Below are positions 5,227-6,201 of a stretch of DNA of 64,000 bases, piece by piece. The notes under the pieces are model-generated. The model worked only from the letters and a program-made list of their open reading frames with translations, had not been told where the DNA came from and made no database searches. This DNA is from a virus (taxonomy: Duplodnaviria > Heunggongvirae > Uroviricota > Caudoviricetes): IMG/VR virus record IMGVR_UViG_2778261268_000002; one strand, given 5' to 3'. The position numbers were made by a program, and so were the translations under genes. The stretch's first letter is position 1. Each line of letters begins with the position of its first letter.

Positions 5227-6201
5227 ATGAACATCCTGATCATTGGGCGAAAATTTGAAGCCATCAGTGATGTGAAAACATATACGGAAATGTGGGCTTA
5301 TAACCTGGCCTGCGCCTTTAGTGAGTCAGGGGTAACATTGCAATACCATCGTCCATATTCCCCTGGCGTCGAAAGCCCGGAGGATTATGTTGAAGCTGTG
5401 TTGACTGCTGCGACCGCATGTTCTGCGAAGGCCATTTTGGCACCAGGATTGAGGTATTTTACTACGGTACCCAGGGAAATAGGCATGCAACTGTGTCGCC
5501 GATTCTCTGGATGGGTAGCCCAGGTATATGACGGTTCTATGCTGGATTCGGCACCAGTCGATATTACTTTTACTGTCCGCGATGATACCTGGCGGTACCT
5601 GGATAATCCCGGCAGGTTAGAGCGTCATAATCGCTTTAACAAACATGTTGGATGGGCAGCGAATCAGGAACTGTTCCATCTGGAAACCAAGACAGACGAT
5701 GTTCTGCGTATTTTTGTAGACCACGCTGCATTTGATGTTAGTGGGTTTGATCACTCCTTAAGTATCCTTATGAACCTTCAGCGTCTGACCGTTCCGTATG
5801 AGGCCAGAACGTTGACCGATGACGGATTGGTTACCATTGATCCGGGGAATATTTCGGTAACTCCATACAGACGGACGCCGGTACCAGCAACCGAATTTGC
5901 AGCTGAATTGCGTAAGAGTGACGTTTTTATCGTTACGCATCCCGAAAGCCTTGGATTAACTGTTCTTGAGGCGGCAATGTGTGGGGCGTTGATATTAACG
6001 CCGCCAGATTGCCTTCCGCCAGATCGCCTGGCTTTGGTGAACCATATGGTTATCAAGTCGCGGATTGATTGGGATGAGGTTATTGCTCGCGTTGATCGCG
6101 TGAAAAATGCTGAAAAGGTCCAGTGTCACACCTGGTCGGCAATCGCGGAAAAGATGCTTGAGACGTTTATCACGCAGAAACCGTCGCGAGGTAACGGATA
6201 A
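5227..6201 (+). CDS. glycosyltransferase-like protein (GT-B fold, GT4-like C-terminal motif)
   Basis: C-terminal HPESLGLTVLEAAMCGALILTP resembles the GT4 E-x7-E nucleotide-sugar binding motif; start at the second ATG with RBS GAGGAA; start overlaps ban stop. Confidence 0.55.
   Translation: MNILIIGRKFEAISDVKTYTEMWAYNLACAFSESGVTLQYHRPYSPGVESPEDYVEAVLTAATACSAKAILAPGLRYFTTVPREIGMQLCRRFSGWVAQVYDGSMLDSAPVDITFTVRDDTWRYLDNPGRLERHNRFNKHVGWAANQELFHLETKTDDVLRIFVDHAAFDVSGFDHSLSILMNLQRLTVPYEARTLTDDGLVTIDPGNISVTPYRRTPVPATEFAAELRKSDVFIVTHPESLGLTVLEAAMCGALILTPPDCLPPDRLALVNHMVIKSRIDWDEVIARVDRVKNAEKVQCHTWSAIAEKMLETFITQKPSRGNG

Follow-up and report, generated by a model that had tools for sequence, protein, structure and literature searches.

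A possible glycosyltransferase gene, dbn, at the end of the ban operon of a P1-like phage and its candidate partners in glycan assembly

The DNA analyzed here, a stretch of 64,000 nucleotides that we call the window, is that of a P1-like phage (Punavirus). At positions 5227-6201 it carries the gene known as dbn ("downstream of ban") in P1 and as glt in P7. Over the ban-dbn-gene 5 region its DNA is 97.6-98.3% identical to that of P1, P7, and RCS47, and the order ban, dbn, convergent baseplate gene 5 is common to the window and P1. The dbn product matches PHROG 2518 over its full length (positions 1-332 of 332, E=1.6e-239) and is 98% identical to a cluster of 2431 sequences. The full-length match and a location flanked by ban and baseplate gene 5 place it in the P1 Dbn orthologous group (PHROG 2518). 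The features of the locus are:

3833 to 5203, plus strand: ban, a DnaB-type replicative helicase gene directly upstream of dbn in the same operon, annotated ban in P1 and P7
5203 to 6201, plus strand: the dbn open reading frame in the form annotated in P1, 332 aa, its ATG overlapping the ban stop codon by one base
5227 to 6201, plus strand: dbn from its probable true start, 324 aa, beginning MNILIIG and preceded by GAGGA at 5215-5219
6223 to 6249, no strand assigned: a GC-rich hairpin of 11 bp (AAAAGCCCG-AGUGC-CGGGCUUUU) that separates dbn from the convergently oriented baseplate gene 5

P1 Dbn (AAQ14048), P7 Glt (AAQ07543), and the RCS47 "glycosyltransferase family 4 protein" represent the same gene (approximately 98% protein identity), and the window protein shows only allelic differences from them. 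In P7 the reading frame is interrupted by a premature stop at codon 23, and its annotated form is shorter. In RefSeq the product is called "glycosyltransferase family 4 protein" and in GenBank "possible glycosyltransferase"; dbn as a possible glycosyltransferase gene is already known from the annotation of P1. A December 2025 preprint still places dbn among the uncharacterized P1 loci, and in the literature searched we found no functional study of Dbn, or of the products of pmgO, pmgP, and pmgQ, as glycosyltransferases. In the P1-like subgroup to which the window belongs, an SPFH lipoprotein gene replaces plp/upl/tciABC upstream of ban.

The gene is under purifying selection (dN/dS ~0.12) and is intact in 131 of 140 BLAST matches among the loci compared; of the other nine, eight are a fragment or have an alignment that reaches to within 7 nt of the 3' end, and only the P7 copy is disrupted. 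A scan of 185,579 species-representative genomes with a narrow alignment of the family returned only two loci, a P1-like element and a 209-bp fragment, so that those genomes essentially lack the family. The first scan of viral contigs gave only near-identical P1-like loci, and a query from a divergent sub-family was used for a second scan.

The dbn reading frame contains two in-frame ATG codons, at 5203-5205 and 5227-5229, and a Shine-Dalgarno-like sequence lies ahead of either one (AGAGGA at 5191-5196 and GAGGA at 5215-5219, respectively). The upstream ATG overlaps the ban stop codon (TAA, 5201-5203) by one base (TAATG) and is the start used for P1 in GenBank, while the downstream ATG lies 23 nt past the stop. 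The latter is probably the true start, as three observations favor it: MK(I/L)L(I/V)IG, which is equivalent to a start at ATG 5227, forms the N-terminus of most homologues; residues 1-5 are disordered in the predicted model of the 332-aa form (pLDDT < 50); and in the P1-like variants L077-L085 an unrelated 101-codon open reading frame between ban and dbn runs up to ATG 5227, the point of divergence. The initial annotation had combined a start at 5227 with an overlap of the ban stop; the overlap is real for the ATG at 5203 and does not apply to the one at 5227. Its placement of the gene beside that of a replicative helicase was accurate, as the ban product belongs to the DnaB family by Pfam (DnaB_C, E=1e-107; DnaB N-terminal domain, E=3e-35).

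The hairpin at 6223-6249 was spotted by reading the sequence and was then folded (-21.8 kcal/mol, z=-3.3; none of 200 shuffled sequences folded as well). It probably terminates transcription in both directions and would thereby end the ban-dbn transcript. A consensus promoter and terminator scan gave nothing convincing within ban or past dbn and did not flag this hairpin, probably because its A/U runs were taken into the stem.

Structure prediction had been named as the check that could refute a GT-B-type glycosyltransferase-like protein, and as regards the fold that proposal is borne out: the model has two Rossmann-like beta/alpha/beta domains, a cleft, and a C-terminal helix that returns to the N-domain, and Dbn very probably has a GT-B fold. 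The best structural matches to the model are active enzymes. Both the two-domain GT-B arrangement and the C-terminal cross-over helix are those of GT4 enzymes (BshA 6n1x, PimA 2gej, WaaG, and MshA) and of the GT5 glycogen and starch synthases. Like the retaining GT4 enzymes, Dbn has an EX7E motif (E248 and E256 align with PimA E274 and E282), and it is predicted to be soluble and of similar size. It differs from the GT4 and GT5 enzymes in its low identity to them (9-14%), its shorter length (~320 aa), its sub-threshold Pfam score, and the apparent lack of a Gly-rich N-terminal loop, the sequence after strand 1 being GRKFEAIS with no GG.

The suggestion that the C-terminal motif resembles the nucleotide-sugar-binding region of GT4 enzymes also held, although weakly by sequence. 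Pfam Glycos_transf_1 (PF00534) matches Dbn at aa 229-315 only (E=3.7e-5), with 23.8 bits against a gathering score of 26.4. Some distant members of the family exceed this cutoff (P0102, 29.9 bits; P0149, 28.4 bits). Compared with the PDB, the broader family profile matched AmGGT in the EX7E region only (E=1.9e-4), and the glycosyltransferase matches of the close-family profile to PDB sequences were marginal (E of 0.3-1). The top PDB sequence match of the close-family profile was KtrA (aa 27-88, E=1e-4), a generic Rossmann-like similarity that we judged uninformative. AmGGT (8xsg/8xsh) and Actinobacillus Agt are alpha-1,6-glucosyltransferases that lengthen the glucose chains of oligosaccharides or glycopeptides. 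Only 41 residues of AmGGT align with Dbn by sequence, and AmGGT is a chromosomal bacterial enzyme, unlike the phage protein. Two distant family members are fusions, P0103 carrying a methyltransferase domain and P0102 a second GT1 domain; these are compatible with glycan chemistry and do not identify the acceptor.

Conservation was assessed across 82 divergent family members (~22-56% identical). D173, H174, H246, E256, and G261 are invariant among them, and conservation reaches at least 90% for E248, D110, the GWAA motif, and D183. The codons for the conserved motifs in the window are:

5530 to 5535, plus strand: D110-G111 (YDG), in the loop that follows strand 4 of the N-domain, with D110 nearly invariant
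5650 to 5661, plus strand: G150-W-A-A153, signature "IGWAAD", at the domain junction, invariant or nearly so in both family alignments
5719 to 5754, plus strand: D173-H174 to D183-H184, from the first C-domain strand to the start of the first C-domain helix
5866 to 5874, plus strand: Y222-R-R224, a (Y/F)xR motif conserved across the family
5938 to 5970, plus strand: H246-P-E248-S-L-G-L-T-V-L-E256, the EX7E nucleotide-sugar-binding motif, from a partial Pfam match and alignments

The EX7E motif aligns with those of PimA, MshA-like chains, and AmGGT (by HMMER) and of WaaG (pairwise), and its glutamates line up with those that are catalytic or bind the donor in PimA and AmGGT. Y222-R-R224 may be the counterpart of AmGGT Y201/R203, the pair through which that enzyme contacts the uridine moiety of UDP (PMC12159676), and D110 may help to form the acceptor side or serve as a base. 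Going by motif and secondary structure rather than superposition, D173-H174 and D183-H184 would be at the site of the diphosphate-binding Arg/Lys pair that GT4 enzymes have ahead of the first C-domain helix (WaaG GRKG; AmGGT R170/K171), and appear to replace it; R170/K171 would thus have no basic counterpart in Dbn. Since both the basic pair and the N-terminal Gly-Gly loop appear to be missing, the donor chemistry of Dbn may differ from that of GT4 enzymes, or the protein may be non-catalytic.

Partner families that recur as neighbors of dbn relatives in other phages are encoded in the window as pmgO, pmgP, and pmgQ (12137-14695), 6-8 kb from dbn:

12137 to 12799, plus strand: pmgO, 220 aa, MptE-like / Cst-II (GT42)-like putative transferase, candidate Dbn partner
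12697 to 13323, plus strand: pmgP, 208 aa, a second MptE-like transferase-like protein, candidate Dbn partner
13305 to 13997, plus strand: ppp, lambda-type Ser/Thr phosphatase (Pfam Metallophos, E=9e-16; PHROG 246)
13994 to 14695, plus strand: pmgQ, 233 aa, GT8/glycogenin-like putative GT-A transferase with a DxD motif, candidate Dbn partner

PmgO matches PHROG 4603 (E=4e-74), the partner-family HMM (E=3e-20), and, below threshold, Pfam MptE-like (E=5e-5); against structures its family profile matches the Cst-II sialyltransferase (E=1e-5). PmgP matches PHROG 2111 (E=4e-132) and the corresponding HMM (E=5e-41). PmgQ matches PHROG 1962, "glycosyltransferase" (E=2.5e-128), and its HMM (E=7e-57), and its family profile matches glycogenin/GT8 over ~135 residues that include the D-x-D (E=1e-3). 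The folds of all three are putative assignments from profile-to-PDB sequence matches. Their "putative morphogenetic" label is due only to operon position. In the window dbn and pmgO-Q are not contiguous, as a divergently oriented tail and baseplate block separates them; in the P1 annotation, C1 operators precede the ban operon and pmgN-Q alike. All four genes were non-essential by CRISPRi, with an EOP of 0.7-1.4 (PMC10695390), and according to Piya et al., dbn was also non-essential in the study that they cite as reference 73.

We propose a grouping of Dbn with an MptE-like protein and a PHROG 1962 GT8-like protein, with or without an FkbM methyltransferase; this cassette is defined here and is not an established family. 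At 30 non-P1 loci, the recurring neighbors of the dbn relative were MptE-like genes (17 loci), PHROG 1962 glycosyltransferase genes (16), and FkbM methyltransferase genes (12). The cassette follows the tail sheath gene in 11 loci, lies between the connector and head-closure genes in L097, and is immediately upstream of terS in lambdoid phages. Its hosts are P1-like phages, lambdoid phages (upstream of the terminase genes), soil myoviruses (from the sheath gene to a tape-measure-like gene), and jumbo phages of Stenotrophomonas and Xanthomonas. The dbn homologue and the partner genes are contiguous in phage EP_H11, L004, L088, L106, and others; EP_H11 has a contiguous pmgP-dbn-pmgQ arrangement, with the pmgP homologue directly upstream of the dbn homologue. 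In the window, ppp fills the pmgP-pmgQ slot where EP_H11, L004, and L088 have their dbn homologues. As the four families form one contiguous cassette in other phages, the P1 cassette appears to be split, and the window accordingly shows co-occurrence of the members without contiguity.

PmgP and PmgQ homologues were present in 22 of 22 Dbn-positive phage records, a figure inflated by closely related records that amounts to approximately three independent isolate lineages plus metagenomic lineages; overall, 27-32 of 50,697 records had such homologues. On the other hand, JK004, phi456, phiNP, XacN1, and Xoo-sp13 have PmgP and PmgQ homologues without Dbn. Together with the separation of dbn from pmgO-Q in P1, this makes Dbn at most an optional step. 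Some relatives occur in polysaccharide gene clusters of cells, where Wza and a WaaZ-like gene are also present.

The best overall explanation of these data, which we offer tentatively, is that Dbn is an enzyme of a split, accessory glycan-building set. Dbn would be a soluble two-domain GT-B enzyme, and its family, which is small, divergent, and GT4-like, is found almost exclusively in phages. It is likely to be an active glycosyltransferase, and the recurrent gene neighborhoods incline us to think that it works with PmgO, PmgP, and PmgQ. It would then contribute one step to a short glycan-building pathway in which PmgO and PmgP may share the MptE/Cst-II-like fold, as in the CMP-ulosonic-acid transferases WaaZ, Cst-II, and Maf, and PmgQ may be GT8/glycogenin-like. 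A host UDP-sugar would probably be bound via the EX7E glutamates and the YxR motif, after which the sugar would be moved to the growing glycan. A virion protein is our favored guess for the acceptor, because the cassette sits in the head and tail modules of other phages, but it is a guess that we would not press; a structural protein would in that case be glycosylated in the cytoplasm during lytic growth. The role of Dbn would be accessory, plaques being formed in the laboratory without need of it. To our knowledge, P1 virions have not been reported to carry a glycan. A broader proposal, in which Dbn, PmgO, PmgP, and PmgQ constitute a conserved glycan-assembly cassette of Gram-negative phages that gives virion proteins a short glycan, is somewhat unlikely as a whole; such a glycan would possibly contain Kdo or another ulosonic acid and would sometimes be methylated. 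We found no description of a four-gene glycan cassette in the literature searched.

One alternative is that the same enzymes act on the host LPS core or another envelope glycan instead of a virion protein. The core that serves as the P1 receptor would be remodeled, so that fewer progeny re-adsorb to infected cells and debris or other phages are excluded. The cellular clusters with Wza and a WaaZ-like gene mean that an envelope-glycan acceptor fits as well as a protein acceptor. However, most of the phage relatives lie in late structural modules (between sheath and tape-measure-like genes, between connector and head-closure genes, or upstream of terS), and new LPS synthesis would have little effect at that stage. 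Nor was the Dbn-family profile significantly similar to E. coli K-12 WaaS, WaaG, or WaaB (probabilities below 5%, in a weak test with single-sequence targets). We know of no report of an LPS change in P1-infected or lysogenic cells, and we regard an envelope acceptor as unlikely. It could also be speculated that Dbn is an inactive GT-B pseudo-glycosyltransferase that serves as a scaffold, chaperone, or adaptor in the manner of GtfB, Asp1, and Gap1. The apparent absence of the basic pair and the Gly-Gly loop would allow for this, but the strongest conservation in the 82 members falls on the positions that active GT4 enzymes have in the cleft (EX7E, H246, D173-H174, and YxR). The dN/dS of 0.12 and the active enzymes at the top of the structural matches also make a loss of catalysis quite improbable.

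The place of dbn beside a helicase gene and close to that of the Dmt methyltransferase would be accounted for if Dbn glycosylated phage DNA, like the GT-B alpha- and beta-glucosyltransferases of T4. The T4 alpha-glucosyltransferase (1y6f) has a common fold with Dbn and no specific similarity beyond it, ranking only 23rd among the structural matches after many GT4 and GT5 enzymes, and Dbn shows neither the base-modification neighbors nor the specific AGT/BGT similarity of the T-even DNA glucosyltransferases. The neighbors of its non-P1 relatives are virion genes and genes for glycan enzymes and sugar-type methyltransferases, never genes for replication or nucleotide modification, and the adjacency to ban is itself broken in L077-L085. 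We know of no hydroxymethylated or glycosylated bases in P1 DNA and of no hydroxymethyl-base pathway in P1, and DNA is a very unlikely acceptor. The least probable account, which we give almost no weight, has Dbn function together with Ban, for example by loading, regulating, or modifying the helicase. The genes are co-transcribed with a one-base stop-start overlap (TAATG) or a 23-nt gap, but none of the 30 non-P1 loci has a DnaB gene next to the dbn relative, an extra open reading frame splits the two genes in L077-L085, ban and dbn are each dispensable, and the fold of Dbn has no hint of a helicase loader. Co-transcription arises only because dbn ends the C1-controlled ban operon of P1-like phages. 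The helicase partnership suggested in the initial annotation therefore reduces to neighborhood: the adjacency is a local feature of P1-like genomes and the coupling can be put aside.

As originally stated, the observation matters little, since it rediscovers a gene that laboratory growth does not require and that the P1 annotation already lists as a possible glycosyltransferase. What the follow-up gains is a fold that has been tested, not guessed, and the grouping of dbn with pmgO, pmgP, and pmgQ. These four genes, a modest new lead, look like a four-enzyme pathway for glycans that recurs as a cassette within the structural modules of unrelated phages. If the broader cassette proposal is true, then classical P1 has an unnoticed post-translational modification and several of the pmg genes encode glycosyltransferases. 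Glycosylation of virions or remodeling of LPS would bear on phage-host recognition, on the immune recognition of therapeutic phages, and on how P1-like phage-plasmids that spread in Enterobacteriaceae are interpreted, all for a model phage that is among the best studied, and the proposed pathway is directly testable by existing P1 genetics.

A precedent for virion glycosylation comes from mycobacteriophages, as cited in other papers. There the glycosyltransferase genes adjoin capsid and tail genes. The Dbn-family cassettes resemble the mycobacteriophage sets in bringing three to five glycan enzymes into head and tail modules (L097, L106, and approximately ten others). They differ in their enzyme families and in their Gram-negative hosts, and the P1 genes are split over two operons.

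The 2.8 kb around dbn is 97.6-98.3% identical at the DNA level to P1, P7, RCS47, SJ46 and vB_EcoM-Ro157c2YLVW, and the window genome is that of a P1-like phage. The open reading frame described in the initial annotation as glycosyltransferase-like is the P1 gene dbn, named for "downstream of ban". Its prediction as a glycosyltransferase from sequence alone is a rediscovery of the label in the original P1 GenBank record ("function unknown, possible glycosyltransferase"); the P7 record calls the gene glt, "putative glycosyltransferase", and RefSeq uses "glycosyltransferase family 4 protein". 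Dbn also matches PHROG 2518, a function-unknown family, over its full length (E=1.6e-239), and a December 2025 P1 transcriptome preprint places dbn among unknown loci. Because the gene, its position and the glycosyltransferase prediction are all in public records, the finding as first written was already known. The new point is the link between dbn and pmgO, pmgP and pmgQ, which recurs in structural modules of unrelated phages; the literature searched, whose coverage was incomplete, contained no description of this link or of the recurring gene set.

Features of the dbn region
3833-5203 (+), ban, DnaB-family helicase Ban (Pfam DnaB_C, E=1e-107)
5203-6201 (+), dbn, long form of 332 aa from the start annotated in P1
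6223-6249, GC-rich hairpin of 11 bp between the convergent dbn and baseplate gene 5 (-21.8 kcal/mol, z=-3.3)

The dbn reading frame has two in-frame ATG starts, at 5203 and 5227, each with a good Shine-Dalgarno sequence. The reported overlap of the gene start with the ban stop codon holds for ATG 5203, which shares one base with it (TAATG), and fails for the originally proposed ATG 5227, which lies 23 nt past the stop. We favor 5227 as the start, because the N terminus of most homologues corresponds to this position (MK(I/L)LxIG), the predicted model shows disorder in residues 1-5 of the long form, and a P1-like subgroup (loci L077-L085) matches only from residue 9. In L077 the DNA 5' of the dbn ATG is unrelated and consists of a 101-codon ORF between ban and dbn (5699-6004), one end of which overlaps the ban stop while its own stop overlaps the dbn ATG; the ORF also occurs in L078-L085, and a Pfam search with it gave no match. 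Downstream, the hairpin has an A-tract, GC stem and U-tract layout and is probably a bidirectional terminator; a consensus terminator scan did not flag it.

The evidence from sequence alone for a glycosyltransferase is marginal. Pfam Glycos_transf_1 matched only aa 229-315, at 23.8 bits (E=3.7e-5), below the cutoff of 26.4, and PDB searches with Dbn profiles reached glycosyltransferases only around the EX7E motif. The predicted model matched BshA (19.1), sucrose-phosphate synthase (18.9), glycogen synthase (18.2), PimA (17.9), WaaB (16.4) and T4 alpha-glucosyltransferase (16.1) in alignments of about 245-282 residues, and Foldseek against viral models again returned glycosyltransferases (top TM 0.76-0.80). 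The proposed GT-B-type fold is thus borne out by structure matches to GT-B enzymes. The GT4-like C-terminal motif also held up: the EX7E of Dbn (E248 and E256) aligns with E274/E282 of PimA and E223/E231 of AmGGT, mutation of which lowers AmGGT activity (PMC12159676).

The Dbn family is small and almost limited to phages and mobile elements. An exhaustive profile search gave 372 representatives at 50% clustering, and only 2 loci were found among 185,579 species-representative genomes. Across 82 members (22-56% identical), D173, H174, H246, E256 and G261 are invariant; nearly invariant positions are D110, G150-W-A-A153, D183, E248 and, in a (Y/F)xR motif, Y222 and R224. The YxR motif may be the counterpart of AmGGT Y201/R203, which hold uridine (PMC12159676). 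In GT4 enzymes, an Arg/Lys pair that follows the first strand of the C-domain binds the diphosphate (GRKG in WaaG, R170/K171 in AmGGT). In Dbn, going by the order of motifs and the secondary-structure prediction, this site appears to be taken by D173-H174 and D183-H184, and the N-terminal Gly-Gly loop appears to be missing. The unusual residues leave room for metal-assisted or other donor chemistry, or for lost catalysis.

Among P1-like loci dbn is intact in 131 of 140 BLAST hits; 8 of the remaining 9 are either a fragment or have an alignment that stops no more than 7 nt short of the 3' end. With a pairwise dN/dS of about 0.12, dbn is under purifying selection. Codon 23 of P7 dbn (AF503408.1, around 75064-76038), counted from its MNILIIG start, is an in-frame stop, which accounts for the shorter glt annotation (287 aa) and may be a true lesion or a sequencing error. 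Fusions occur among distant family members: in P0103 the Dbn domain is joined to a methyltransferase domain of class I, P0102 contains a pair of GT1-type domains, and P0178, which extends 200 aa further at its C terminus, is encoded ahead of a second gene of the Dbn family.

Outside P1-like phages, the neighborhoods of about 30 Dbn-homologue loci contained the following.

Neighbors and settings of Dbn homologues
17 loci, MptE-like proteins (PHROGs 4603 and 2111; some match Pfam WaaZ_KDO_III)
16 loci, PHROG 1962 "glycosyltransferase"
12 loci, FkbM-type methyltransferases
10 loci, PHROG 28018
Soil myoviruses, 11 loci (about 7 distinct), cassette immediately 3' of the tail sheath gene and 5' of a gene for a 700-800 aa M23-peptidase protein, probably the tape measure
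L097, cassette between head-tail connector and head-closure genes
Lambdoid phages L004, L088 and phiNP, cassette between lysis genes and terS
L096, a 120-kb phage-like contig, cassette adjoining MuF-toxin fusion genes
Colwellia and related contigs, cluster of cellular polysaccharide genes including Wza and one WaaZ-like gene

A large M23-domain protein is encoded 3' of the cassette in L106 (10461-12866) and in L099, L100, L112 and L115. L096 encodes several very large ADP-ribosyltransferase-toxin fusion proteins (1-522, 12728-15637, 16548-16963), with a Mu F-like head domain, NUDIX domain or Acb1-like domain as fusion partner.

HMMs of the partner families were run against the window's own ORFs.

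Partner genes in the window
12137-12799 (+), pmgO (hdmB in P7), MptE-like, PHROG match E=4e-74
12697-13323 (+), pmgP (hdmC in P7), MptE-like, PHROG match E=4e-132
13305-13997, ppp, phosphatase gene in the pmgP-pmgQ slot, the site of dbn homologues elsewhere
13994-14695 (+), pmgQ (hdmD in P7), PHROG 1962-like, PHROG match E=2.5e-128

The PHROG matches are decisive for these predicted family assignments. The names in the records ("putative morphogenetic", "head morphogenesis") come with no cited functional basis. Over almost all of its length, the PmgO/P family profile matched structures of the Cst-II sialyltransferase from Campylobacter (GT42; E=1e-5), and the PmgQ profile matched glycogenin/GT8 structures over about 135 residues including the D-x-D motif (E=1e-3). 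In EP_H11 and IME392, pmgP-like, dbn-like and pmgQ-like genes are contiguous in that order with overlapping ends, an arrangement of genes whose order L004 and L088 share. In P1, dbn lies across an inverted tail/baseplate block (genes 5, 6, 24, 7, 25, 26) from pmgO-Q, and C1 operators precede both the ban operon and pmgN-Q in the P1 record. Dbn occurs in 22 of 50,697 phage records, all 22 with PmgP and PmgQ homologues, a count that overstates the statistics because no more than about three independent lineages stand behind these records; the metagenomic loci supply additional independent cases. JK004, phi456, phiNP, XacN1 and Xoo-sp13 have PmgP/PmgQ homologues without Dbn. CRISPRi knock-down did not reduce plating (EOP 1.3 for dbn, 1.1 for pmgO, 0.72 for pmgP and 1.4 for pmgQ; PMC10695390).

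Most likely, Dbn supplies one glycosyltransferase step in an accessory pathway of four enzymes, the others being PmgO, PmgP and PmgQ. PmgO and PmgP would be folded like the CMP-ulosonic-acid transferases WaaZ, Cst-II and Maf; PmgQ would be GT8-like and Dbn GT4-like, both presumably drawing on host nucleotide sugars. Together the four would build a short glycan. The main alternative to a virion acceptor is an envelope glycan, either the LPS core or a different one: the E. coli LPS core is built by enzymes whose families match the three kinds in the cassette, it is the P1 receptor, and some cellular Dbn relatives sit in Wza-containing clusters. We favor a virion protein as the acceptor, given how frequently the cassette lies within late structural modules. 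Mycobacteriophages offer a precedent in their glycosyltransferases, which are encoded next to capsid and tail genes and glycosylate virions. Taken whole, a glycan-assembly cassette of Gram-negative phages that decorates virion proteins is a tentative and rather doubtful reading.

Glycosylation of DNA by Dbn is poorly supported. So is a partnership with Ban, which the initial annotation raised from the gene order: none of the roughly 30 loci outside P1-like phages has a DnaB-type gene adjoining the Dbn homologue, which argues against the helicase as a partner. A non-catalytic role for Dbn is conceivable, given the residues at its putative diphosphate site.

Elsewhere in the window, pmgM (11395-11973, +), named "putative morphogenetic", matches a PHROG that carries the label Holliday junction resolvase (E=5e-27) and, below threshold, Pfam VRR-NUC (E=3e-4); it may encode a nuclease and not a morphogenetic protein. 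Upstream of ban (2056-3450, +) the window departs from reference P1.

Features in place of P1 plp, upl and tciABC
2056-2142 (+), extra tRNA-Ser (UGA anticodon)
2406-2642 (+), 78-aa membrane-like ORF
2623-3450 (+), 275-aa lipoprotein with an SPFH/Band 7 domain (Pfam E=1e-30)

The SPFH-lipoprotein variant 5' of ban is also found in Ro157c2YLVW, RCS47, 813R1 and infant-gut P1 isolates.
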